A stretch of 64,000 nt of DNA from an uncultured Rhodospirillaceae bacterium (GCA_964557415.1 CAZLBB010000007.1:9064-73063); one strand, 5' to 3'. Shown: positions 4,233-62,788, counted from the first letter of the stretch. Numbers and translations are program-made. Notes: generated by a model not told the origin, from the sequence alone.

Positions 4233-4303
4233 TCCTCGTCCTTCGACAAGCTCAGGACGAGGTGGTTCGTTGGCCTCGTCCTGAGCTTGTCGAAGGATGA
4301 AGG
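4233..4303. repeat. Large nested inverted repeat (REP/MITE-like hairpin) between rdgB and hemW
   Basis: Seen directly in the sequence. The left arm at 4233-4262 (TCCTCGTCCTTCGACAAGCTCAGGACGAGG) and the right arm at 4274-4303 are reverse complements: a 24-bp perfect core, then 3 mismatches over 6 bp, with an 11-nt loop. Each arm is itself a CCTCGTCC..GGACGAGG palindrome. Confidence 0.6.
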
Positions 4304-4315
4304 CGCTTGGCGCGC

Positions 4316-5476
4316 ATGACACAGACAGACACCTGCTTCGGCGTCTACGTGCACTGGCCGTTCTGCCGGTCGAAGTGTCCGTATTGCGACTTCAACAGCC
4401 ACGTGCGCGAGTCCATCGACCAGACGCGCTGGCGCCGCGCGCTGCTGGCCGAACTCGACCACTGGGCCGACCAGATTCCGGAACGGCGCGTCACCAGCCT
4501 GTTCTTCGGCGGCGGCACGCCGTCGCTGATGGAGCCCGAGACGGTGGCGGCGCTGATCGCGCGCGTGCGCCGGCGCTGGCCGGTTGCCGACGATCTCGAG
4601 ATCACGCTCGAGGCCAATCCGACCTCGGTCGAGCGATCGCGCTTCGCCGCCCTGGCGGAAGCCGGGGTCAACCGCGTGTCGCTCGGCGTGCAGGCGCTCG
4701 ACGATCGGGCACTCGGCTTCCTCGGCCGCCAGCACAGCGCCGGCGAGGCGCTCGAAGCGGTAGCCACGGCGCACCGGCACTTCGCCCGTGTGTCCTTCGA
4801 CCTGATCTATGCGCGGCCGGGGCAGGGCGTCGCGGATTGGCGGCGCGAGCTTGGCGAAGCGCTCTCGCATGCCGGCGAGCATCTGTCGGTCTACCAGCTC
4901 ACCATCGAGAGGCAAACCGCGTTCGAAGGCGCGCATCGGCGGGGCGAGTTCGCCTTGCCCGACGAGGACACGGCGACGGCGCTGTTCGAGGCCACGGGGG
5001 AGATTCTGGCCGCATCCGGCCGCGCGGCCTACGAGGTGTCGAACCATGCGCGTCCCGGCGCGGAATGCCGGCACAACCTGACCTACTGGCGCTACGGCGA
5101 CTATGTCGGCATCGGCCCCGGTGCGCACGGCCGGCCGCGCGTTTCCGGCGAAAAGCTGGCGACGCGCCAGCACCGCGCGCCGGAGATCTGGCTCGATGAA
5201 GTCGAGCGTCAAGGCCACGCGACGACCGAACGCCGCGCGCTGCCGCCGGCGGAGCAAGCGCAGGAGGCGCTGATGATGGGGCTCAGGCTCAGCGAGGGCA
5301 TCGACGCGGCGCGTTTCCATGCCGCGACCGGCGTGAGGCTGGAGCATGCGGTCGATCGCGCCGGGCTCGACGTGCTGGTCGAAGCCGGATTTGTGCAACG
5401 CGACGGCGCCACGATCCGCGCGACGCCGGAAGGCGTGCTGCGGCTGGACGCGGTGCTGGCGCGGCTCGCCGCCTGA
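4316..5476 (+). CDS. hemW: Radical-SAM haem chaperone HemW (HemN-like, oxygen-independent coproporphyrinogen-III oxidase family)
   Basis: Radical SAM CxxxCxxC motif near the N-terminus (HWPFCRSKCPYCDF). Conserved rph-rdgB-hemW gene order. The ATG at 4316 is preferred over the TTG at 4307 that the ORF track used. Confidence 0.85.
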   Translation: MTQTDTCFGVYVHWPFCRSKCPYCDFNSHVRESIDQTRWRRALLAELDHWADQIPERRVTSLFFGGGTPSLMEPETVAALIARVRRRWPVADDLEITLEANPTSVERSRFAALAEAGVNRVSLGVQALDDRALGFLGRQHSAGEALEAVATAHRHFARVSFDLIYARPGQGVADWRRELGEALSHAGEHLSVYQLTIERQTAFEGAHRRGEFALPDEDTATALFEATGEILAASGRAAYEVSNHARPGAECRHNLTYWRYGDYVGIGPGAHGRPRVSGEKLATRQHRAPEIWLDEVERQGHATTERRALPPAEQAQEALMMGLRLSEGIDAARFHAATGVRLEHAVDRAGLDVLVEAGFVQRDGATIRATPEGVLRLDAVLARLAA

Positions 5477-5484
5477 GTGCGCGC

Positions 5485-7059
5485 TCAGTTAGTCTCGGCG
5501 AAGCTCTCCGGCGCCGGGTCGACGACCTTGACGCCGCGCGGCAGGACTTCCAGCACCGCCATGCCACGCTCGATCAGCCCGTCGGCGCGGAAGCGGAATA
5601 TGCCGGCGACGCCGGCATAGCCCGAGGGCTGCTCGATCAGGTCGGCGGTGAAGCCGCGGCCGCGGCCGAGCACGGCGGCGAGCGCCGCCGCGTCGTAGGC
5701 GAGCGCGGCCAGCCGCGGCGGCCGGCGCTTGAAGGTCTGCTCGTACAGTCGCTCGAATTCCTGGCGCGGTGCCGGTGGCGGCGCGGCGAACCAAGCGCCG
5801 ACCAGCGCCGGCTCGTTGCCGAGACCCGGCTCGTCCCACAGCGCCGTGCCGAGGATTTTGATCTTCGCCGGATCGATGTCGTAGTAGGGCAGGAGCGGCG
5901 CCAGGGCGCGCAGGCGCGCGCCCGACTCGGCGACCAGCAACGCGTCGAATCCCATCTCCGAGGATATCTGGTCCTGCAGCCGGCGCAGCTCGGCCTTCGA
6001 CGCGGCGTCGTTCTTGCCCTGCAGCTGCTGGATCTGGGCGCGCCGCCGCCCGTCGTACTTGGCCAGCGCACGCACCGCCGGGTTGAAATCCTCGGTGCCC
6101 GGATCATAGAGCTGCACGTCGGTCAGCGTGCCGCCATAGGCGGCCAGCGCCGCCTGCAACCCGACCGTGATCGCCTCGCCGTACTCGTTGCGCGGCGCCA
6201 GCACGGCGAAGCGCTCGATCTGCCGGCTGCGCGCGAAGGCGACGACGCGCAGCACCTGCGCCTCGGGCAGGAAGCCCATGATGTGGACGCCGCCGCCGGC
6301 GACGCTGCGGTCGTTGGAGAACGCCACCGCGTTGACGCCGCTGCCGCCGATCAGCCGCCCGACCTCGCGCGCCTCGGCGGCGAAGAGCGGCCCCAGCAGC
6401 AGCTGCGCACCTTCGGCTAGCGCCTGCTGCGCGGCCTGCTGCGCCGCCTCGGGGGAGCCGGCGGTGTCGAAGGGCCTGAGCACGACGTCTTCGACGCCCA
6501 TCTCGTAGGTCGCCAGCATCGCGGCGTCGAGCATGCTCTGGCCGAGGCCCGCCGCCTGGCCGCTCAGCGGCAGCAGCACGGCGATGGTCTTGTGCCCGGC
6601 GAAGACGCCCGGCACGGGCGCGGCGGACGGCGCGGGAATGATGGCGCCGGGCGGGTGCCCGAACAGCGTCGCCAGCGCACCGGGCGGCAGCGCCGCCGGC
6701 GGACCGGGCGGCGCTCCGGCCGGCGGCGGCAGGGCGCCGGGATCGACCACGACGCTTGCCTCCGTGCCGGGCGGCGGCAGCGGCTTCGCCGTCACCGGCG
6801 GCGCCGGCGGGATGAGCCGCGGTGCGCCGGGCTGTGCCGCGCCGGGCGGCGGTGCGGAAGGCTGCGGCGCGGCCGCGACGGCTTGTGGCGGCGGCGCTAC
6901 CTCCTTGACCCCGGGCCGTGGTAGGCCTGCGTCCTGGAACCGCATGAACGATTCCGTCGACGGCTCTTGCGGTCCGGGCCACCTCGTCACTAACGTCTTG
7001 CAGCCCGACAGCAGCGCCGCGCCAGCGAGCAGCAATGGCAACCAACAGCCACGCCTCAT
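5485..7059 (-). CDS. LpoA/YraM-like lipoprotein: a periplasmic-binding-protein type-1 fold with a Pro/Ala-rich linker. Putative penicillin-binding-protein activator.
   Basis: Signal peptide plus lipobox (LLSGC). A long P/A-rich low-complexity linker, then a Leu/Ile/Val-binding-protein-like domain. It is divergent from rsmI-yraN, as lpoA (yraM) is in E. coli. Confidence 0.7.
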   Translation of the reverse strand: MRRGCWLPLLLAGAALLSGCKTLVTRWPGPQEPSTESFMRFQDAGLPRPGVKEVAPPPQAVAAAPQPSAPPPGAAQPGAPRLIPPAPPVTAKPLPPPGTEASVVVDPGALPPPAGAPPGPPAALPPGALATLFGHPPGAIIPAPSAAPVPGVFAGHKTIAVLLPLSGQAAGLGQSMLDAAMLATYEMGVEDVVLRPFDTAGSPEAAQQAAQQALAEGAQLLLGPLFAAEAREVGRLIGGSGVNAVAFSNDRSVAGGGVHIMGFLPEAQVLRVVAFARSRQIERFAVLAPRNEYGEAITVGLQAALAAYGGTLTDVQLYDPGTEDFNPAVRALAKYDGRRRAQIQQLQGKNDAASKAELRRLQDQISSEMGFDALLVAESGARLRALAPLLPYYDIDPAKIKILGTALWDEPGLGNEPALVGAWFAAPPPAPRQEFERLYEQTFKRRPPRLAALAYDAAALAAVLGRGRGFTADLIEQPSGYAGVAGIFRFRADGLIERGMAVLEVLPRGVKVVDPAPESFAETN

Positions 7060-7958
7060 CCAGCGAGCCTAGCCGTGCCGTTCCGGCAAGTAAACCGGAC
7101 GCCGCCTATCCGGCGCCCGTCGGCTTGAGCATCGTCGCGACGCCGATCGGCAATGCCGGCGACATCACCTTGCGCGCGCTCGACACGCTGAAGCGCGTCG
7201 TCGCGGTGGCGTGCGAGGACACGCGCGTCACCATGAAGCTGTTCTCGATCCACGGCATCTCCACCAGGCTGATCGCCTACCACGACCACAATGCCGAGGA
7301 AATGCGGCCGAAGCTTGTCGCACGCCTGGCGGCGGGCGAGGCGCTGGCCCTGGTCTCTGACGCCGGTACGCCGCTGATCTCGGACCCCGGCTACAAGCTC
7401 GTGCGCGAGTGCCTCAACCGCGGCATCGCGGTGACGGCACTGCCGGGCCCGTCGGCGCTGATCGACGCCCTGGTGCTCTCGGGGCTCCCGAGTGACCGGT
7501 TCTTCTTCGCCGGCTTCCTGCCGCCGCGCGCGGCGGCACGCCGCGCCGCCATCGCCGGGCTCGCCGCCATCCCCGGCTCGCTCGTGCTCTACGAGGCGCC
7601 GCAGCGCCTGGTCGATTGCCTGTCCGACCTCGGCGACGTTCTCGGCGACCGCCCCGCCGCGGTGGCGCGCGAGCTGACCAAGCGCTTCGAGGAGCTTCGG
7701 CGCGACCGCCTCCCCGCGCTCGCCGGGCATTACGCGGCGGCGGGCGCGCCCAGGGGCGAAGTGGTGATCGTCGTCGGCCCGCCCGACCGCCCGGCCGGGG
7801 CGCCGGCCGTCGAGACGCGGCTCGACGCGATGCTGGGCGAGGCGATGGCGCGCGCGAGTCTGCGCGATGCGGTGGACGAGGTCGCCGCGGCCTTAGGGCT
7901 GCCGCGCCGCGTGGTCTACCGGCGCGCGCTGGCGCTCGGCCCGGCGGCGCCGCGATGA
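7035..7958 (+). CDS. rsmI: 16S rRNA (cytidine1402-2'-O)-methyltransferase RsmI
   Basis: Contains LSIVATPIGNAGDITLRAL ... EDTR, the tetrapyrrole-methylase-fold RsmI signature. The start is uncertain: the ATG at 7035 overlaps the divergent lipoprotein start by 25 bp. An in-frame TTG at 7125, which would give MSIVATPIGN, is an alternative. Confidence 0.85.
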   Translation: MATNSHASSSEPSRAVPASKPDAAYPAPVGLSIVATPIGNAGDITLRALDTLKRVVAVACEDTRVTMKLFSIHGISTRLIAYHDHNAEEMRPKLVARLAAGEALALVSDAGTPLISDPGYKLVRECLNRGIAVTALPGPSALIDALVLSGLPSDRFFFAGFLPPRAAARRAAIAGLAAIPGSLVLYEAPQRLVDCLSDLGDVLGDRPAAVARELTKRFEELRRDRLPALAGHYAAAGAPRGEVVIVVGPPDRPAGAPAVETRLDAMLGEAMARASLRDAVDEVAAALGLPRRVVYRRALALGPAAPR

Positions 7959-39169: not shown

Positions 39170-39666
39170 CTAAGGCTCCGCGGGGGCCTTTTCCATGAAT
39201 ATGCTCAGCGGGTCGGGCCGGTACGCGCCGAAGGGCCCGCGCGTGCGGAAGCCGAAGCGGCGGCAGAGCGCGAGGGCGGCGACGTTCCCGGGGCCGGTTT
39301 CCAGCGGGATCACCTGCACCCGCTCGCGCCGCGCCGCCTCATCGATGGCGCCGAGGAGCGCGCGGCCGACGCCCATCCCGCGCGCGGCCGCCGTCACGAT
39401 CATGCGCTTGACCTCGGCATCGCCGGCTCGGCCCCGCAGCAACCCGGCACAGCCGGCCACGCACCCATCAGCCGCGCGACAAAGAAGCGGGTCCCGGGCC
39501 GGTCAAGCGCGTCGACGCCGATCAGATGGTTGCTCCACGGCGGGTAGAGCCCCATGGAGAATGCGTCGGATTCCCGCAGCAGGGATTCGATCTCGGCCTG
39601 CCGCGGCGGCTCTTCGGCAATCATCACCATCGGGCTAGACTGGCATTGGGTCAGGCCCTCGCGCAA
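39170..39666 (-). pseudogene. GNAT-family N-acetyltransferase interrupted by a 1-nt frameshift near 39455
   Basis: The N-terminal half lies in the frame of 39400..39666 and the C-terminal half (AGCAGLLRGRAGDAEVKRMIVTAAARGMGVGRALL, GNAT motif A) in the frame of 39170..39460. Joining them requires a 1-nt shift within CGGCTGATGGG. It could equally be a sequencing error. Confidence 0.55.
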
Positions 39667-39917: not shown

Positions 39918-40895
39918 TCAGGCGCGCCTGCCGCGGAAGGAGCGATAGAGCGCCTCGAACAGCTCGGCGCCGCGCTTGATGCGCTCCGTGTCGTCGGCTG
40001 CGCTCTCGCAGATGCCGGCGACGAGCTGCAGCACGCCGGCCGCCTCGGGCCGCGCGTACTTGCCGTCCTTCAGGTCGATGTCGTGCACGATCTCGGCGAG
40101 CTGGTGCAGGCCTGGATCGTTCGCGACAAAGCGCTGCTGCAACACCTCGAACGTGCAGCGGTCGCCTTCGTGCGTGAACTCGGCATCGAACATGTCGAAG
40201 CGCAGCTCGCCGGCGCGCGGGCTGTAGTCCTTCTCGGAGACGAACTTGAAGCGCGCCCGGGGATCGATGAAGCGCTTGATCAGCCAGGCGGTGGCGATGC
40301 GGTCGACGAACACCTGCGACCGGGTCACCCAGACCCGGCCGCTCGGCCGTGCCCTCTCCGCGCGCGCTTCGGCCTGGTGCTGCGACGCGGGCTTGAGCCG
40401 CGCCTCCAGGCCCGACAGCGCCCCTTCGGCCGGCTCGCGGCCGGCCGCGCCGAAGAAATCAAGCGCCGCCACCTGATCGAAGCGACGCCTGAGCCGCCGC
40501 GTCGCCGCCTCCATCTCGGACGGCTGCTCGGCCAGCTCGTCGAGAATCCGGCGCGCTTCCTCGGTCACGCCGGCGTAGTCGGCATCGCGCGCGGCATCGA
40601 ACAGGCCGCGCAGACCCGCGTCGTCCAGGCCGTGCACGAAGCGCGCCTCGCACAGCACCGCCTCGCCGCCGCCCTGCTCGATCTCGCGACAGACCCAGCG
40701 CAGGTCCTCGTGCGCCTGGTCCGACCGCGGCAGAACGTAGGCCGCGTTCTTGACCGCTACGGCGCCCAGCGCCTGCAGCCGGCGCCAGATCTTGACCCGC
40801 AGGTAGGCCGGCTTCGGCGGGATGTTGTGCAGCAGCATCAGCCAGGACATCGGCGCGGGCGCGGCCATAGCGTCTCCTTGCGGCCAATATAACAA
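39918..40895 (-). CDS. chrB: ChrB-family chromate-resistance protein (regulator/sensor; two ChrB domains)
   Basis: N-terminal ChrB domain (LLHNIPPKPAYLRVKIWRRLQALGAVAVKNAAYVLP) and C-terminal ChrB_C-like domain (VWVTRSQVFVDRIATAWLIKRFIDP). Confidence 0.75.
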   Translation of the reverse strand: MLYWPQGDAMAAPAPMSWLMLLHNIPPKPAYLRVKIWRRLQALGAVAVKNAAYVLPRSDQAHEDLRWVCREIEQGGGEAVLCEARFVHGLDDAGLRGLFDAARDADYAGVTEEARRILDELAEQPSEMEAATRRLRRRFDQVAALDFFGAAGREPAEGALSGLEARLKPASQHQAEARAERARPSGRVWVTRSQVFVDRIATAWLIKRFIDPRARFKFVSEKDYSPRAGELRFDMFDAEFTHEGDRCTFEVLQQRFVANDPGLHQLAEIVHDIDLKDGKYARPEAAGVLQLVAGICESAADDTERIKRGAELFEALYRSFRGRRA

Positions 40896-41012
40896 CTGCT
40901 AGCAACAAAGCCATTAAGAAAGAAACAGTTGCAACATCGATTGTCCAGGTATATAGAGCAGATGTATCATTGAATGCAACAGTGATGATCATGAAGCCAT
41001 CGAGGGCCGCAC
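40896..41012. promoter_or_regulatory. AT-rich divergent intergenic region between chrB and the DUF1127 genes. It carries three GCAAC half-sites, including a perfect GTTGCAAC palindrome.
   Basis: Seen directly in the sequence. This is a marked GC drop in a ~68% GC genome. GCAAC occurs at 40902, 40931 (GTTGCAAC at 40928-40935) and 40976. TATATAGAG lies at about 40950. The function is inferred. Confidence 0.3.
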
Positions 41013-41186
41013 ATGCCCGGCAAGCTCATGGAGTTGCTCGTCATTCTTCACCGCGTTCTGGCGCGCCGCCGGCATCGGCGGGCCCTCGCCGGGCTGTCGA
41101 GGCTGGGCGAGCGCACGCTGCGCGACCTGGGCATCGATCCCGATGCGCTGCGCGCAGAAATGTCGAAGCCGTCATGGCGACCCTGA
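41013..41186 (+). CDS. DUF1127-family small protein (57 aa; 52 aa if it starts at the ATG at 41028)
   Basis: Not in the ORF track (<60 aa). The translation ...RRRHRRALAGLSRLGERTLRDLGIDPDALRAEMSKPSWRP matches the DUF1127 C-terminal signature (basic stretch, DxGLxR, KPFW/KPSW). GAGGG lies 6 nt before the ATG at 41013. Confidence 0.6.
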   Translation: MPGKLMELLVILHRVLARRRHRRALAGLSRLGERTLRDLGIDPDALRAEMSKPSWRP

Positions 41187-41220
41187 CCATGTCGAAGACG
41201 CAAGCACGGGAGATTCGATC

Positions 41221-41436
41221 ATGCTGATGGACGTTCTCTATGCCACGTTTGCGCGCTGCGCCGCCCGCAACCGCGCAGCGCGATCGGGCGGCCTGGCCGG
41301 CGTGCTGCTGTGCTGGACCGAGCGGGCGCGTCAGCGCAACGCGTTGGCGACGCTGGACGCCGACGGGCGGCGCGATATCGGCCTCGCCGCGGGGGCGATC
41401 GACCGCGAGGTCGCCAAGCCGTTCTGGCGCCCATAG
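41221..41436 (+). CDS. DUF1127-family small protein (71 aa), second tandem copy
   Basis: The translation MLMDVLYATFARCAARNRAARSGG ... RARQRNALATLDADGRRDIGLAAGAIDREVAKPFWRP. GGGAG lies 7 nt before the ATG. The ORF-track entry 41143..41436 is an over-extension. Confidence 0.6.
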   Translation: MLMDVLYATFARCAARNRAARSGGLAGVLLCWTERARQRNALATLDADGRRDIGLAAGAIDREVAKPFWRP

Positions 41437-41445
41437 GGGACGGCC

Positions 41446-42390
41446 ATGAGCTACCGCGTCGCACCGCTCGACGTCACCCCGGCCTCGCTCGACGGCCTGT
41501 CCGAGCGGCTGATCGTCAGCCACTACGAGAACAACTACGGCGGCGCCGTGCGCCGATTGAACGCGATCGCCGCCGAACTCGCGCGGCTGGACCCGCAGGC
41601 GGCGCCCGGCTTCCAACTCAACGGGCTCAAGCGCGAGGAGCTGATCGCCGCCAACTCGATGCTCCTGCACGAGCTCTACTTCGCGAGCCTGGGCGGCGGC
41701 AGCGGCGATCCGCCGGCGGCGCTGGCGGCGGCGCTTGAGCGCGACTTCGGCAGCGTCGCGCGCTGGCGCGCGGAATTCAGCGCGATGGGCAAGGCGCTGG
41801 GCGGTGGCTCGGGCTGGGTGCTGCTCGCGTGGTCGTCGCGCGACCGGCGCCTGGTGAACCAATGGGCCGCCGACCACACGCACACGCTGGCGGGCGCCCG
41901 GCCGGTCCTCGCGCTCGACATGTACGAGCATGCCTATCACCTCGATTTCGGCGCCCGCGCCGGCGCCTATGTCGACGCGTTCATTCGCAATATCGACTGG
42001 GCTTCGGTCGAGCGGCGCGTTCAGGCCGCGGCCGGCATCGCCGACGAGCCGCGACGCCATGACGCGGAATCGATCGCACCCGAGGATCTCAGTGCGTCGC
42101 TGGCCGCCGGCCGGGCGCCGCTCATCCTCGACGTGCGCCGGCGCCGGGCCTTCGATGCCGGCGCCGACATGATCCAGGGCGCCGCTTGGCGCCAGCCGGA
42201 GATCGTGGCCGACTGGGCCGACACGCTGCCGCGCGGCCGCGAGGTCGTCGTCTACTGCGTCTACGGCCACAACGTCAGCCACGACACGGTGACGGCCCTG
42301 CGTGCCAAAGGCATCGATGCCCGCGCGCTCCGCGGCGGTATCGCGGCCTGGCATGCGATCGGCGGGCCGGTAGGCGGCAAAACCGCGTGA
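41446..42390 (+). CDS. Fe/Mn superoxide-dismutase-like domain fused to a C-terminal rhodanese (sulfurtransferase) domain. The SOD-like part resembles ChrC.
   Basis: SOD C-terminal motifs are conserved (GSGWVLLAW; DMYEHAYHLDFG ... FIRNIDW). In the N-terminal motif, VSHYENNY replaces the canonical FHHxKHHxxY. The rhodanese domain has the active-site Cys loop VVVYCVYGHNVS. Confidence 0.75.
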   Translation: MSYRVAPLDVTPASLDGLSERLIVSHYENNYGGAVRRLNAIAAELARLDPQAAPGFQLNGLKREELIAANSMLLHELYFASLGGGSGDPPAALAAALERDFGSVARWRAEFSAMGKALGGGSGWVLLAWSSRDRRLVNQWAADHTHTLAGARPVLALDMYEHAYHLDFGARAGAYVDAFIRNIDWASVERRVQAAAGIADEPRRHDAESIAPEDLSASLAAGRAPLILDVRRRRAFDAGADMIQGAAWRQPEIVADWADTLPRGREVVVYCVYGHNVSHDTVTALRAKGIDARALRGGIAAWHAIGGPVGGKTA

Positions 42391-42433
42391 TCGGCCGCGC
42401 GACAGCCAATATGGTCCTTGACGGGGGAACGCC

Positions 42434-42928
42434 ATGAAATGGATCACGCGCGAGCGGCCGAAGATCGATCGCATCGCTTGTCCCTGGCTGGTCGCGCGCT
42501 TCATCGACCGCGCGCCGGAATTCCTCTACGTGCCCGCGGGCGCGGTGATGCGCGAGGCAACGGCGCAGAGCGCCATTCCCTACGACGTACCCGAGGTCGA
42601 GCTCAGCCATGTCGGCGAGAGATGCAGCTTCGACGCGTTCCTGTCGAAATACGGTCTCGACGAGCCGGCGCTGCGTCAGCTCGCGACGATCGTGCGCGGC
42701 GCCGATACCGGGCGGCCCGATCTCACCGCGCAGTCGGCCGGGCTGCTCGCGGTTTCGCTCGGCCTCTCGCGAGTCTTCAGGGACGATCACCAGATGCTGG
42801 CGCACGGCATGGTGCTCTACGACGCGCTCTATGCCTGGTGCCGCGAGGCGCAGGGCGAGACGCATGGCTGGCCGCCGGCCGATTGGCCGAGAGCCGTCCT
42901 CGATGACGCGGAGCCGCCACGCGTATGA
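42434..42928 (+). CDS. ChrB C-terminal-domain-like protein (standalone)
   Basis: The translation ERPKIDRIACPWLVARFIDRAPEFLYV parallels the C-terminal domain of the chrB product. Its stop overlaps the chrA start (ATGA). Confidence 0.6.
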   Translation: MKWITRERPKIDRIACPWLVARFIDRAPEFLYVPAGAVMREATAQSAIPYDVPEVELSHVGERCSFDAFLSKYGLDEPALRQLATIVRGADTGRPDLTAQSAGLLAVSLGLSRVFRDDHQMLAHGMVLYDALYAWCREAQGETHGWPPADWPRAVLDDAEPPRV

Positions 42929-44289
42929 CGCATGCCGCCGCACCGGTCCCCTTTCGCGATGCGCTGCGCACCTGGGCCAAGATCGGGCTCCTGAGCTTCG
43001 GCGGGCCGGCGGGACAGATCGCCACCATGCACCGCATCCTGGTCGAGGAGAAGCGCTGGATCGGCGAAGCGCGGTTCCTGCACGCGCTCAACTACTGCAT
43101 GCTGCTGCCGGGGCCCGAGGCGACGCAACTCGCCGCCTATATCGGCTGGCTGCTGCACCGCACGCTCGGCGGCATCGTCGCCGGCGTGCTGTTCGTGCTG
43201 CCGGGCGCCTTGGTGATGGTGGCGTTGAGCGCGCTTTACGCCGGCTATCGCGATCTGTCCGCGGTCGACGCCGTGTTCTTCGGCATCAAGGCGGCGGTGC
43301 TGGCGGTGGTGGTCGAGGCTGTCCTCCGCATAGGCCGGCGCGCGCTCGGCAATCCCGCGCGCGTGGCGCTCGCGGCGCTGGCGTTCGTCGGCATCTTCCT
43401 GTTCGCCGTGCCGTTCCCGCTGATCGTGCTGGCGGCGGGGATGGCCGGCCTGGTCGGCGCGCGGGTCCGGCCGGACTGGTTCGCCAACGGCGTCGGACAT
43501 GGTTCCGCCAAGGGCAAGCCCGTGCTCGACGCGCTGATCGACGAGAGGCTGCTGACCCATGTCGATCCCACGCCGGGCCGCGCGCTCGGCGTGCTGCTGG
43601 CCTGGGGGGCCATCTGGGCCGCTCCGGTCGCGGTTGCGGGCCTCGTGCTCGGATCGAGCCACGTGCTGGTGGCCGAGGGCCTGTTCTTCTCCAAGGTCGC
43701 GGTGGTCACCTTCGGCGGCGCCTACGCGGTGCTCGCCTACGTCGCGCAGCAGGCGGTCGAGCACTATGCCTGGATCGGAGCCGGCGAGATGCTGGACGGT
43801 CTCGGCATGGCCGAGACCACGCCCGGGCCGCTGATCCTGGTGCTGACCTTCATCGGCTACTTGGCCGCCTACCGGCTCGGCGCGCCGCTCGATCCGGCTC
43901 TGGCCGGCTTGCTGGGAGCGGCCCTGACCACCTGGGTGACGTTCGTTCCCAGCTTCCTGTTCATCTTCCTCGGCGCGCCTTATGTCGAGCGGCTGCGCGG
44001 CAACCCGGCCGCGGCGGGGGCGCTGTCGGCGATCACGGCCGCCGTGGTCGGCGTGATCCTCAACCTCGCCGTCTGGTTCGCCCTGCACGTGGTGTTCCGC
44101 GACCACGTGCCCTGGCGCTTCGCCGGGATGCAGGTCGACCTCCCGGTCGCGTCCTCGCTCGACCTGCCGGCCCTGGTGCTCGCAGGCGGCGCGATGCTGG
44201 CCATGCTGCGTTTCAAGCTCGGCATGATCCCGGTCCTGGCCGGGGCGGCGGCACTCGGTCTCGGCTGGCGCTATGTCACAGGGACTTGA
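42925..44289 (+). CDS. chrA: Chromate ion transporter ChrA (long form, two CHR domains)
   Basis: 454 aa. The translation IGLLSFGGPAGQIATMHRILVEEKRWI ... GPEATQLAAYIGW, with the repeat VAVVTFGGAYAVLAYVAQQ ... TPGPLILVLTFIGY, gives the tandem CHR-family signature. Confidence 0.85.
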   Translation: MTHAAAPVPFRDALRTWAKIGLLSFGGPAGQIATMHRILVEEKRWIGEARFLHALNYCMLLPGPEATQLAAYIGWLLHRTLGGIVAGVLFVLPGALVMVALSALYAGYRDLSAVDAVFFGIKAAVLAVVVEAVLRIGRRALGNPARVALAALAFVGIFLFAVPFPLIVLAAGMAGLVGARVRPDWFANGVGHGSAKGKPVLDALIDERLLTHVDPTPGRALGVLLAWGAIWAAPVAVAGLVLGSSHVLVAEGLFFSKVAVVTFGGAYAVLAYVAQQAVEHYAWIGAGEMLDGLGMAETTPGPLILVLTFIGYLAAYRLGAPLDPALAGLLGAALTTWVTFVPSFLFIFLGAPYVERLRGNPAAAGALSAITAAVVGVILNLAVWFALHVVFRDHVPWRFAGMQVDLPVASSLDLPALVLAGGAMLAMLRFKLGMIPVLAGAAALGLGWRYVTGT

Positions 44290-60293: not shown

Positions 60294-61559
60294 TCAAGTG
60301 CCGGCTCGCGCCAGGGCGTCGATTGCGGCCGCGCCGGCGGCGGTCAGGATCACGACGAGCCAGGGCGGCCATTTCCACAACGCGAGGAGCGCGAACGCGG
60401 TGAGCGCCAGGGCGAAGTCGGCCGGCGCCTTGATCGCGCTGGTCCACACCGGATTGTAGAGCGCCGCGAGCAGCAGCCCGACTACGGCCGCGTTGACGCC
60501 CATCAGGGCCGAGCGTACCGGACGCACGCGGCGCAGATCGTCCCAGAACGGCAGCGCGCCGAGGGTCAAGAGGAAGGACGGCAGGAAGATCGCCGCCAGG
60601 CACAGGACCGCGCCCGCCCAGCCGTTGGGCGGCGGTGTCATCACGGTCCCGAGATAGCCCGCAAAGGTGAAAAGGGGACCGGGCACGGCCTGGGCGGCGC
60701 CGTAGCCGGCAAGGAACGTGTCGTTCGTGACCCAGCCCGGCTGCACGACCTCGGATTGCAGCAGCGGCAGCACCACGTGTCCGCCGCCGAACACGAGCGA
60801 GCCGGTGCGGTAGAAACTGTCGAGCAGCGCCAGCGACTGGCTCGGGAAGGCTGCCGCGAGAGCCGGCAGGCCGAGCAGCAGAGCGAAGAACAGGAACAGT
60901 GCCACCGCACCGGTCGTCCGCGAGACGCCGGCATGCATCGGCTCATGCGCTCCCTCGCGCGTGTCCTTGAGGAACAGCAGGCCGAAGAGCCCGCCGCCGG
61001 CGATCGCGCCGATCTGGCCGAGCGAGGTCGGCCAAAGCGAGAAGGCCCAGGCCGCCGCAACGGCGACGCTCGCGCGGGTCGCGTCGGGACAGAGGTTGCG
61101 GGCCATGCCCCACACCGCAAGGGCGACGACGGCGACCGCCACCACCTTCAAGCCGTGCAGGAGGCCCGCATCGAGCAAGTCGTGATAGGCGCCGACGCCA
61201 TAGGCGAACAGGACGAGCGCCAGCGCCGAGGGCAGCGTGAAGGCAAGCCACGAGGCGATGCCGCCCGGCAGCCCGCCCATCATGAGGCCGATGCCGATTC
61301 CGACCTTGCTGCTGGCGGCGCCAGGCGTGAACTGGCACAGCGCCACCAGGTCGGCGTAGCTTTGGTCGTCGAGCCACTTGCGGCGGTTGACGATCTCGTC
61401 GCGGAAATATCCCAGGTGCGCGATCGGCCCACCGAAGGAGGTCAGTCCAAGGCGCAGGAATACCAGGAAGATCTCGCCGATGGAGCGGTGCCGAGCGTGA
61501 CGCGCATGCGGTTGCGCCGTCGCGCCGACCTTGTGTGGGCGCTGATCCATCGTTGTCAC
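60294..61559 (-). CDS. chrA: Chromate ion transporter ChrA, second paralog
   Basis: 421 aa. The translation LRLGLTSFGGPIAHLGYFRDEIVNRRKWL ... LVFGGGHVVLPLL ... VPGPLFTFAGYLG gives the tandem CHR domains. Confidence 0.8.
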   Translation of the reverse strand: MTTMDQRPHKVGATAQPHARHARHRSIGEIFLVFLRLGLTSFGGPIAHLGYFRDEIVNRRKWLDDQSYADLVALCQFTPGAASSKVGIGIGLMMGGLPGGIASWLAFTLPSALALVLFAYGVGAYHDLLDAGLLHGLKVVAVAVVALAVWGMARNLCPDATRASVAVAAAWAFSLWPTSLGQIGAIAGGGLFGLLFLKDTREGAHEPMHAGVSRTTGAVALFLFFALLLGLPALAAAFPSQSLALLDSFYRTGSLVFGGGHVVLPLLQSEVVQPGWVTNDTFLAGYGAAQAVPGPLFTFAGYLGTVMTPPPNGWAGAVLCLAAIFLPSFLLTLGALPFWDDLRRVRPVRSALMGVNAAVVGLLLAALYNPVWTSAIKAPADFALALTAFALLALWKWPPWLVVILTAAGAAAIDALARAGT

Positions 61560-61661
61560 CGGTCAGGATGACGTTTCCAATCGGCTATCGATATCGATTT
61601 ACGATATACTGTGCAACAGCTATCGGCTGAGTGGTTCCACGCACCTTGGAAGGCGGCGCAG

Positions 61662-62447
61662 ATGGAGTACGCCGTTATTGCCGCGACGGCCCTGCTGGTA
61701 TCGGGCGTGACGCTGTTTTCCGGCTTCGGGCTCGGCACGGTGCTGATGCCGGCCTTTGCGTTGTTCTTCCCCGTGCCGGTCGCGATCGCGGCGACGGCGG
61801 TGGTGCATCTCGCCAACAACCTGTTCAAGGTCGGCCTCGTCGGCCGCCATGCGGATTGGCGCGTCGTGCTGCGCTTTGGCCTGCCGGCGGCCTGTGCGGC
61901 GATTGTTGGCGCGCGGCTCCTGGCGGCATTTGCCGGCCTGCCACCGCTGACCACCTTTCAGCTGGCGGGCGCCGAGCGCGAAATCTCGCCACTGAAGCTG
62001 ACCGTCGGATTGCTGATCGTCGCCTTCGCATGGCTGGAGCTCTCGTCGCGCCTGGAACAGCTCGCCATCCCGCCGCGCCTGCTGGTCCTGGGCGGGCTGA
62101 TCTCGGGCTTTTTCGGCGGGCTGACCGGCAACCAGGGCGCCTTTCGCACGGCCTTCCTGGTCAAGGCAGGTCTCTCGAAGGACGCGTTCGTAGGAACCGG
62201 GGTCGTATCGTCGGTCATCGTCGATACGGTGAGGCTCACGGTCTACGGCCTCTCCTTCTATACGGCGCAATTCGCCGTGCTCGACCGGGACGTGATAGCG
62301 GCGGTCGCGGTTGCCACGGTGGCTGCCTTCGCAGGTGCGTGGCTCGGGGCGCGCTTGCTGCGGAAGGTGACGTTGCGCTCGGTGCAGATCATCGTGGCCG
62401 CGATGATGATCGCGTTCGGCTTCGCGCTGGCGGCGGGCATCGCGTAG
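61662..62447 (+). CDS. TauE/SafE-family (DUF81) anion exporter membrane protein
   Basis: 261 aa from the ATG at 61662, about 8 TM, with the conserved paired G-rich helices (LFSGFGLGTVLMP; GGLISGFFGGLTGNQGAF). Confidence 0.75.
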   Translation: MEYAVIAATALLVSGVTLFSGFGLGTVLMPAFALFFPVPVAIAATAVVHLANNLFKVGLVGRHADWRVVLRFGLPAACAAIVGARLLAAFAGLPPLTTFQLAGAEREISPLKLTVGLLIVAFAWLELSSRLEQLAIPPRLLVLGGLISGFFGGLTGNQGAFRTAFLVKAGLSKDAFVGTGVVSSVIVDTVRLTVYGLSFYTAQFAVLDRDVIAAVAVATVAAFAGAWLGARLLRKVTLRSVQIIVAAMMIAFGFALAAGIA

Positions 62448-62449
62448 CT

Positions 62450-62788
62450 TCAGTCGTCCTCGAACAGCTCCCCGAACAGCTCGCGGACCTTCTCCTTGGC
62501 CTCTGCCAGCGCGCGCCTTCCGGCCGGAGTTGCGCGGTAGAGCCGCCGCGCGCTGCGCCCCTGGCGTTCATGGCGCGAGCGCAGATAGCCGCGCGTCTCC
62601 AGGCCGTGCAGCAGCGGGTAGAGCGTACCCGCGCTGAGCCTGTAGCCGTGCCGCGCCAGCTCTTCCATGATTCCGGTGCCAAAGATCGGCTCGCGCGCGG
62701 CGTGATGCAGGATGTGCAGGCGGATGAGCCCCGAATAGAGCTGGTTGTGGCTGGCGCCCTTCCGGCCGGAATCGATGCGGTTGCGCAT
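62450..62788 (-). CDS. PadR-family transcriptional regulator
   Basis: 112 aa. The translation GLIRLHILHHAAREPIFGTGIMEELARHGYRLSAGTLYPLLHGLE is the PadR winged-HTH signature. Confidence 0.8.
   Translation of the reverse strand: MRNRIDSGRKGASHNQLYSGLIRLHILHHAAREPIFGTGIMEELARHGYRLSAGTLYPLLHGLETRGYLRSRHERQGRSARRLYRATPAGRRALAEAKEKVRELFGELFEDD

Follow-up and report, generated by a model that had tools for sequence, protein, structure and literature searches.

A predicted chromosomal chromate-resistance locus with fused chrC and chrE and two DUF1127 genes in an uncultured Rhodospirillaceae bacterium

The stretch of DNA analysed here (the window) is composed of 64,000 nucleotides (nt) from an uncultured Rhodospirillaceae bacterium (GCA_964557415.1 CAZLBB010000007.1:9064-73063), whose genome has a G+C content of about 70%. 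The region in focus, 39918-44289, carries a putative chromate-resistance (chr) cluster of six genes, the family of each backed by Pfam, for the two DUF1127 genes at scores just under the cut-off, in the order chrB <-> DUF1127-DUF1127-chrC::chrE-chrF-chrA. On the minus strand, the regulator gene chrB (39918-40868) encodes both a ChrB_N domain (60.6 bits, 2.2e-16) and a ChrB_C domain (159.2 bits, 8.9e-47). Its likely start is the ATG at 40868, although the list of open reading frames (ORFs) has an upstream TTG at 40895; the gene was called with 316 amino acids (aa) in an independent assembly, and the G+C content of its third codon positions (GC3) is 0.92. An AT-rich spacer of approximately 145 nt (40869-41012), the divergent promoter/operator region, separates chrB from the plus-strand genes. 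These are DUF1127 a (41013-41186), DUF1127 b (41221-41436), a 314-aa chrC::chrE fusion that joins a superoxide dismutase (SOD) domain to a rhodanese domain (41446-42390; Sod_Fe_C 3.6e-24, Rhodanese 3.1e-8), a 164-aa chrF consisting of a ChrB_C domain only (42434-42928; 168.4 bits, 1.3e-49), and chrA1, which encodes a long-chain CHR transporter of 454 aa (42925-44289; Chromate_transp 257.5 bits over two stretches, 7.3e-77). The gaps between them are 34, 9 and 43 nt, and the chrF stop and the chrA1 start share an ATGA at 42925-42928, an arrangement that indicates one compact operon. The same four-base overlap is found in two relatives (L087 and L091). The original prediction, a chromate-resistance-like cluster whose last two genes overlap by ATGA, is borne out in its gene list: ChrB, ChrC, ChrE, ChrF and ChrA were all matched, with Pfam scores far beyond chance. 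Regarding noncoding RNA, no Rfam family was matched in the whole window at gathering thresholds, and no CcsR-type small RNA or riboswitch accompanies the DUF1127 genes.

The identity of the accessory proteins was established by comparison with plasmids. A tblastn search with the SOD-rhodanese protein retrieved a Cupriavidus metallidurans pMOL28-type plasmid, in which a single match to residues 1-309 runs across two adjacent genes annotated as "Fe-Mn family superoxide dismutase" and "rhodanese family chromate resistance protein ChrE". The annotation of this plasmid region gives regulator <-> chrB-chrA-SOD-chrE, with the gene of a 140-aa "ChrB domain-containing protein" after chrE. From the published pMOL28 gene order, chrZYPNOF1ECA1B1 <-> chrI (PMC11647585), the SOD gene of the plasmid is chrC and the 140-aa gene is chrF1. 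In pairwise comparisons the N-terminal half of the fusion is 70% identical to C. metallidurans ChrC, its C-terminal half 48% identical to ChrE, and the ChrB_C-only protein 74% identical to ChrF1. By these comparisons the SOD-like/rhodanese and ChrB_C-only proteins are orthologues of the textbook ChrC, ChrE and ChrF. The components are therefore not non-canonical, as had been proposed, whereas the claim that the layout departs from the textbook one stands, both in gene order and in the presence of DUF1127 genes. The cluster shares with chrBACEF-type loci a two-half ChrA, an adjacent ChrB_N+ChrB_C regulator and the ChrC/ChrE/ChrF accessory proteins; it does not have the B-A-C-E-F order with separate C and E. 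As judged from homology, it contains all of the core chrBACEF parts, reordered and with chrC and chrE fused, and the DUF1127 pair is the sole addition from outside the textbook set. We consider that the locus is probably, at roughly 75%, a vertically inherited chromosomal chr determinant that is part-for-part homologous to chrBACEF of C. metallidurans pMOL28.

The pMOL28 chr1 cluster (chrI <-> chrB1-A1-C-E-F1-O-N-P-Y-Z) has the same five core proteins, but in the order B-A-C-E-F, whereas the order in the window is B, (DUF1127)x2-CE-F-A, with chrB divergent and C and E in one polypeptide. In the window it is chrF, and not chrE, that overlaps the next gene; chrI and chrONPYZ are missing and two DUF1127 genes are added. 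The window locus is also chromosomal and syntenic in relatives, while pMOL28 is a plasmid. Downstream of chrF, a lipoprotein-type gene (DUF1529 and DUF1259, respectively) followed by a beta-propeller/YncE-like gene was observed in Rhizobium leguminosarum (L002, 7575-9483) and in C. metallidurans (L093, 9440-11429); this pair resembles chrY/chrZ of pMOL28 and is not present in the window. The chrBACF operon of TnOtChr from Ochrobactrum tritici 5bvl1 is ChrB-regulated and chromate-inducible, as is predicted for the window, with an AT-rich operator over the -10 (PMC3817168). ChrC, an Fe-SOD, and ChrF, an accessory protein of about 17 kDa (PMC4779226), are parts that O. tritici has in common with the window. 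Unlike the window locus, TnOtChr is transposon-borne, has chrB as its first operon gene and another operator sequence, and lacks rhodanese and DUF1127 genes.

The fusion protein consists of a ChrC-type Fe/Mn-SOD domain (residues 1 to about 195) and a ChrE-type rhodanese domain (about 208-309). The SOD metal ligands H26, H75, D158 and H162 are invariant in an alignment of 26 fusion homologues, and so is the rhodanese catalytic Cys271 in YCVYGHNVS, which aligns with CVHGHQVS of ChrE. A sequence search of the PDB gave the Aquifex Fe-SOD 1coj as the best match (residues 6-195, 2.8e-26). Thousands of homologues were found in the protein search; nearly all of the top 120 have both domains and, where named, they are called "Fe-Mn family superoxide dismutase". 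In a species-representative genome set, at least 589 stretches have a ChrC-type relative, and the best 80 of these were used for locus counts. All 80 align over approximately residues 1-309, that is, they are fused, and they come from Rhizobium, Mesorhizobium, Sinorhizobium, Inquilinus, Roseicella, Variovorax, Acidovorax, Polaromonas and many metagenome-assembled genomes (MAGs). The 80 loci were annotated by phmmer with the window proteins as queries, and a chr gene within 7 kb was counted as linked. Another chr gene was linked in 67 of them, ChrA in 61, a full ChrB in 46 and a ChrB_C-only gene in 41, so that the presence of the SOD-rhodanese fusion in chr context among relatives, which the original prediction had left as a check, is confirmed. 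The fusion followed by chrF is thus a regular and widespread variant of the chr gene set.

Three layouts recur: chrA-chrB <-> chrCE-chrF in Rhizobiales, chrB-chrA-chrCE(-chrF) in Burkholderiales and chrB <-> chrCE-chrF-chrA in Acetobacteraceae. The order of the window itself, with chrB divergent from chrCE, chrF and chrA, is also found in Roseicella, Dankookia, Rubritepida and Crenalkalicoccus. The clusters of Rhizobium, Mesorhizobium, Sinorhizobium, Inquilinus and Acetobacteraceae (Roseicella, Dankookia) resemble that of the window in having a fused ChrC::ChrE that is 56-62% identical to it, followed by ChrF and divergent from chrB, together with a ChrA1-type transporter (ChrA1 scores more than 530 bits to the ChrA of the Rhizobiales and Acetobacteraceae clusters) and the promoter element TGTATC(AT). 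They differ in having no DUF1127 genes between chrB and chrCE, and in Rhizobiales chrA lies behind chrB.

Within the spacer 40869-41012, a promoter scan identified a sigma-70-like -35 box, TTGTCC (40941), and a -10 box, TATCAT (40965-40970). The region also has a 9-nt inverted repeat, ACAGTTGCA (40925-40933) and TGCAACAGT (40975-40983), as well as GCAACA and TGTATCAT boxes, and these blocks are kept in an alignment with three relatives. Of 23 spacers between divergent chrB and chrCE genes, taken from several alphaproteobacterial lineages, 16 contain the 8-mer TGTATCAT or its complement ATGATACA, usually in the form GCAACAC-TTGTATCAT, in place of which the Acetobacteraceae spacers have the palindrome GATACAnnTGTATC. 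Since ChrB of O. tritici binds an AT-rich imperfect repeat over the -10 (PMC3817168), the boxes in the window fit the description of a ChrB operator, and we infer that ChrB binds in 40869-41012.

ChrA1 scores 222 bits on TIGR00937 (cut-off 171.7). ChrF is 32% identical to the C-terminal half of the ChrB encoded in the window, against 74% to C. metallidurans ChrF, so that an origin of ChrF as a recent copy of the ChrB C-terminal half was discarded. Its AlphaFold (AF2) model has a mean confidence score (pLDDT) of 85; the PDB sequence search gave no match for ChrF at E <= 1, and Foldseek with the model found no significant match in the PDB.

Several observations weigh against a straightforward equation of the locus with the characterised chr systems. 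The identity between ChrA1 and the ChrA characterised in C. metallidurans is just 30%, and the substrate of ChrA1 is for this reason putative. The rhodanese half of the fusion scores 98.6 bits on the NCBIfam model rhodan_ChrE, below the equivalog cut-off of 120. His30 and Tyr34, the usual second-sphere residues of Fe/Mn SOD (E. coli FeSOD numbering), are replaced by Asn30 and Ala34 within the invariant motif SHYENNYGGA. The candidate operator differs in sequence from the O. tritici site, and published accounts disagree on what ChrF does: one view, cited in PMC7060636, holds it to be a putative repressor, whereas in Ochrobactrum tritici it was described as a dimeric Mn-dependent SOD (PMC4779226). 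With respect to the second-sphere residues, SHYENNYGGA is also the motif of C. metallidurans ChrC, to which the O. tritici ChrC, an active tetrameric Fe-SOD, is strongly homologous according to its authors (PMC4779226). This common feature suggests that the ChrC domain of the window is likely to keep its SOD activity.

Analysis of the closest relatives bears on the inheritance of the locus. Three alphaproteobacterial MAG assemblies (L087, L089 and L091) have a fusion 73-80% identical to that of the window, and in all three the cluster lies between prephenate dehydratase (PDT)-NUDIX(-GNAT) genes and a TRAP transporter plus amidase, as it does in the window. The G+C content is flat across the region. 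The common chromosomal site argues for vertical inheritance rather than a recent island, and an origin from a mobile element, which was also considered, is unsupported by both observations. Some differences were observed around the cluster. An EamA-family transporter gene lies between NUDIX/GNAT and chrB in L087 (3440-4474) and L091 (3441-4487) and is not present in the window, where a frameshift divides the GNAT acetyltransferase gene beside chrB (39170-39666, minus strand) in two: the ORF 39400-39666 corresponds to residues 1-37 of the 136-aa protein of a relative and the ORF 39170-39460, in another frame, to residues 42-136. The same split is found in an independent Logan assembly (L001), and it represents a pseudogene or an assembly error.

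In the relative at 80% identity, L087, a TauE/SafE-family permease gene (6952-7698) is inserted between chrCE and chrF. This gene of the sulfite-exporter family favours an alternative in which the cluster would deal mainly with oxyanions of sulfur or with sulfur-related stress (sulfite, thiosulfate or an imbalance of sulfate), with chromate as an incidental substrate analogue. Such a function would agree with the fusion of a sulfurtransferase domain with conserved catalytic Cys to the SOD, with the common occurrence of ChrB_C+rhodanese fusions, and with the fact that the locus is a conserved chromosomal feature of uncultured environmental relatives and not a mobile resistance island. However, the characterised homologues of ChrA, ChrB, ChrC and ChrF are all defined by chromate phenotypes, and a reporter based on O. 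tritici ChrB was described as very specific to chromate (PMC3817168). In addition, the L087 permease has no significant similarity to the TauE encoded elsewhere in the window (61611-62447), and a TauE gene turned up in none of 160 other chr loci. We regard a mainly sulfur-related role as quite unlikely, and a chromate determinant remains the preferred reading of the cluster.

The DUF1127 genes are the part of the cluster without a textbook counterpart. DUF1127 a encodes 57 aa, is arginine-rich and ends in KPSWRP, and DUF1127 b encodes 71 aa and ends in KPFWRP, so that both share a KPFWRP-type terminal motif. A custom hidden Markov model (HMM) showed that they are homologous to each other's orthologues and to the C-terminal domain of a protein from another Rhodospirillaceae MAG, L007 (38.5 bits). 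The L087 orthologues keep both length and position (57 and 71 aa, each with 63% identity), with ratios of nonsynonymous to synonymous substitution (dN/dS) of 0.58 for a and 0.29 for b, and GC3 is 0.81 and 0.88, respectively. DUF1127 b was also called as a gene in the independent assembly. On these signs the two mini-genes of the original prediction look like real genes. The close relatives differ in how many copies they carry: there is one in L089, and L091 has only a degenerate 49-aa remnant, which indicates that DUF1127 is dispensable. Cases outside this group include a freshwater metagenome contig (L150) with the order chrB <-> DUF1127-chrCE-chrF, and L032, in which a DUF1127 gene directly follows chrF; the possibility that the latter is a second ChrB_C::DUF1127 fusion was rejected, as the adjacent genes are in different frames.

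The most informative case is L007, whose chrCE fusion is 65% identical to that of the window. Here one protein has both ChrB_C (136.7 bits) and DUF1127 (38.5 bits), and its gene heads an operon that continues with chrCE-chrF-chrA. The 14.9-kb locus, in which about 6 kb precede the operon and 5 kb follow it, yielded no chrB. A search with this fusion found both Pfam domains in most of the 120 matches listed, with 50-100% identity, one of them from Dongia deserti, and ChrB_C::DUF1127 fusions on this count form a large protein family. They occur within a chr cluster in Dongia (L094), as an orphan gene (L095), and in L096 adjoining a major facilitator superfamily (MFS) transporter, in a neighbourhood of a few kb that also includes another ChrB_C gene and a TauE gene. 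The domain fusion suggests that DUF1127 and the ChrB_C sensor domain act together in chr loci.

A metagenome scan seeded by the ChrB_C::DUF1127 fusion alignment, with both search patterns inside ChrB_C, gave mostly plain ChrB_C proteins and served as background only. The 80 ChrB_C loci of this random sample have the same toolkit in other combinations, including split SOD-rhodanese-ChrB_C arrangements and ChrB_C+rhodanese fusions. Proteins of the latter type, named 'sulfurtransferase/chromate resistance protein' at NCBI, are frequent in chr loci (L015, L016, L029, L054, L063 and many of L100-L179). Together, the ChrB_C+rhodanese, SOD+rhodanese, ChrB_N+ChrB_C and ChrB_C+DUF1127 combinations point to a promiscuous domain network around ChrB_C. 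A DUF1127 gene is present in one of the 80 background loci, suggesting that the association of DUF1127 with chr genes is limited to certain lineages.

Known small DUF1127 proteins, such as the Agrobacterium tumefaciens SDPs, Escherichia coli YjiS and Rhodobacter sphaeroides CcaF1, are like those of the window short and arginine-rich with a KPFW-like end. CcaF1 binds RNA (PMC8034643), and DUF1127 proteins bind the phosphate-sensor kinase PhoR (PMC12501420), activities that provide a precedent for a role in oxyanion signalling. The window genes differ from these in sitting in a chr operon, and their relatives in having DUF1127 covalently fused to ChrB_C. Our literature search found no searchable paper that covers DUF1127 together with chromate. 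We tentatively suggest that DUF1127 may be a partner or output module of the ChrB_C oxyanion sensor. Many Alphaproteobacteria have the two in a single protein, and on this reading the unit would be split in the window into ChrF and two free DUF1127 proteins.

A further explanation denies the two ORFs a function in the chr cluster: they would be small genes that evolve fast, or remnants, and their place in the operon's 5' leader would be a matter of chance. Three of the findings that favour it also count against the main reading of the locus: the Pfam PF06568 scores of a and b (22.9 and 23.2 bits) are marginally below the gathering cut-off of 23.3, DUF1127 a evolves fast (its dN/dS compares with 0.12 for chrF), and L091 has only the degenerate remnant. 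The number of copies, two, one or a remnant among close relatives, and the single occurrence in the background sample point in the same direction. Set against this are the conservation of length, frame and position in L087, the coding-type GC3 and dN/dS values below 1, the independent cases beside chr genes in L150, L032, L007 and L094, and the large ChrB_C::DUF1127 family, which would be hard to explain without a functional link. We therefore find it doubtful that the pair are bystanders, and return below to DUF1127 as a possible accessory to ChrB_C.

The window has a second long-chain CHR transporter gene, chrA2, on the minus strand at 60294-61559 (256.5 bits, 1.5e-76), near a TauE/SafE-family anion permease gene (61611-62447, plus strand; 78.6 bits, 7.6e-22) and a PadR-family regulator gene (62450-62788, minus strand; 65.6 bits, 3.9e-18). 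An identical database protein (P0241, 418 aa) places the likely start of chrA2 at the ATG at 61550. The original prediction had chrA2 back-to-back with both TauE and PadR; the genes are real, but the divergent, head-to-head pair is that of chrA2 and TauE only, with PadR running towards the 3' end of TauE. ChrA2 has two Chromate_transp halves and scores 343 bits on TIGR00937, compared with 222 for ChrA1, and the two transporters are 28% identical over just about 90 residues. Among 100 ChrA ORFs from chr loci, 95 resemble ChrA1 more closely than ChrA2. ChrA2-like sequences are absent from this set, in which the highest score against ChrA2 is 121 bits. In the genome of L087, another locus (L097) has a chrA2 orthologue with 87% identity and keeps MutS, a phytase-like gene, ChrA2, TauE and PadR plus two extra genes. 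One gene of this locus, encoding 171 aa without a Pfam match (4299-4814), lies between ChrA2 and TauE and has no counterpart in the window, where chrA2 and TauE are about 50-110 nt apart. A 77% homologue (L098) has PadR immediately downstream, and the locus of a 68% homologue has neither PadR nor TauE. PadR scores 98 bits on the NCBIfam Rv3488-family model, below its cut-off of 140, and is a candidate regulator of chrA2/TauE.

A further reading would extend the chromate system to chrA2, TauE and PadR as its second arm, in which the two ChrA proteins would cooperate or be redundant. In its favour, both are full-length CHR transporters within 16 kb, in a relative a chrA2 orthologue and the chr cluster are on the same contig, and TauE-family genes occur now and then in chr loci. 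The low identity and the absence of ChrA2-like proteins among chr-locus ORFs speak against this; moreover, in the loci sampled ChrA2-type genes either have PadR beside them or stand alone, with chrB, chrC and chrF absent, and the 16 kb between the two genes are filled by unrelated genes (TRAP transporter, amidase, extracellular solute-binding protein, MutS). TauE as a shared link of both ChrA loci was also dismissed, because of the dissimilarity of the L087 operon TauE and that of the window. A second arm is therefore unlikely, and the present evidence speaks against a functional pairing of chrA1 and chrA2. As far as the comparisons indicate, ChrA2 belongs to a distant CHR subfamily and is part of a separate, probably PadR-associated module with TauE outside the chr operon.

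A model of the working of the locus can be proposed, all functional steps of which are taken from characterised homologues. ChrB would sense chromate via its C-terminal domain and control the divergent promoter, with the GCAACA and TGTATCAT boxes over the -10 as candidate operator; upon induction, the compact five-gene operon would be transcribed. ChrA1 would export chromate by proton-motive force, while the ChrC domain would clear superoxide from intracellular Cr(VI) reduction and the ChrE rhodanese domain joined to it, whose catalytic Cys is conserved, may perform thiol or persulfide chemistry beside ChrC. ChrF, a sensor domain without the DNA-binding half, may modulate signalling or add Mn-dependent SOD activity as reported for Ochrobactrum, and the ATGA overlap suggests that chrF and chrA1 are translationally coupled. 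The two DUF1127 proteins would be lineage-specific accessory regulators, most likely acting on ChrB_C-domain proteins, and chrA2, TauE and PadR would operate as a separate module.

For chromate biology as such the locus adds little. In databases chrC::chrE goes under no other label than "Fe-Mn family superoxide dismutase". What is new is the pair of DUF1127 genes with its connection to ChrB_C, which offers a testable partner for two poorly understood families, DUF1127 and ChrF. If this link is true, DUF1127 would add a second regulatory layer on chromate resistance, by RNA or protein binding, comparable to the binding of PhoR.

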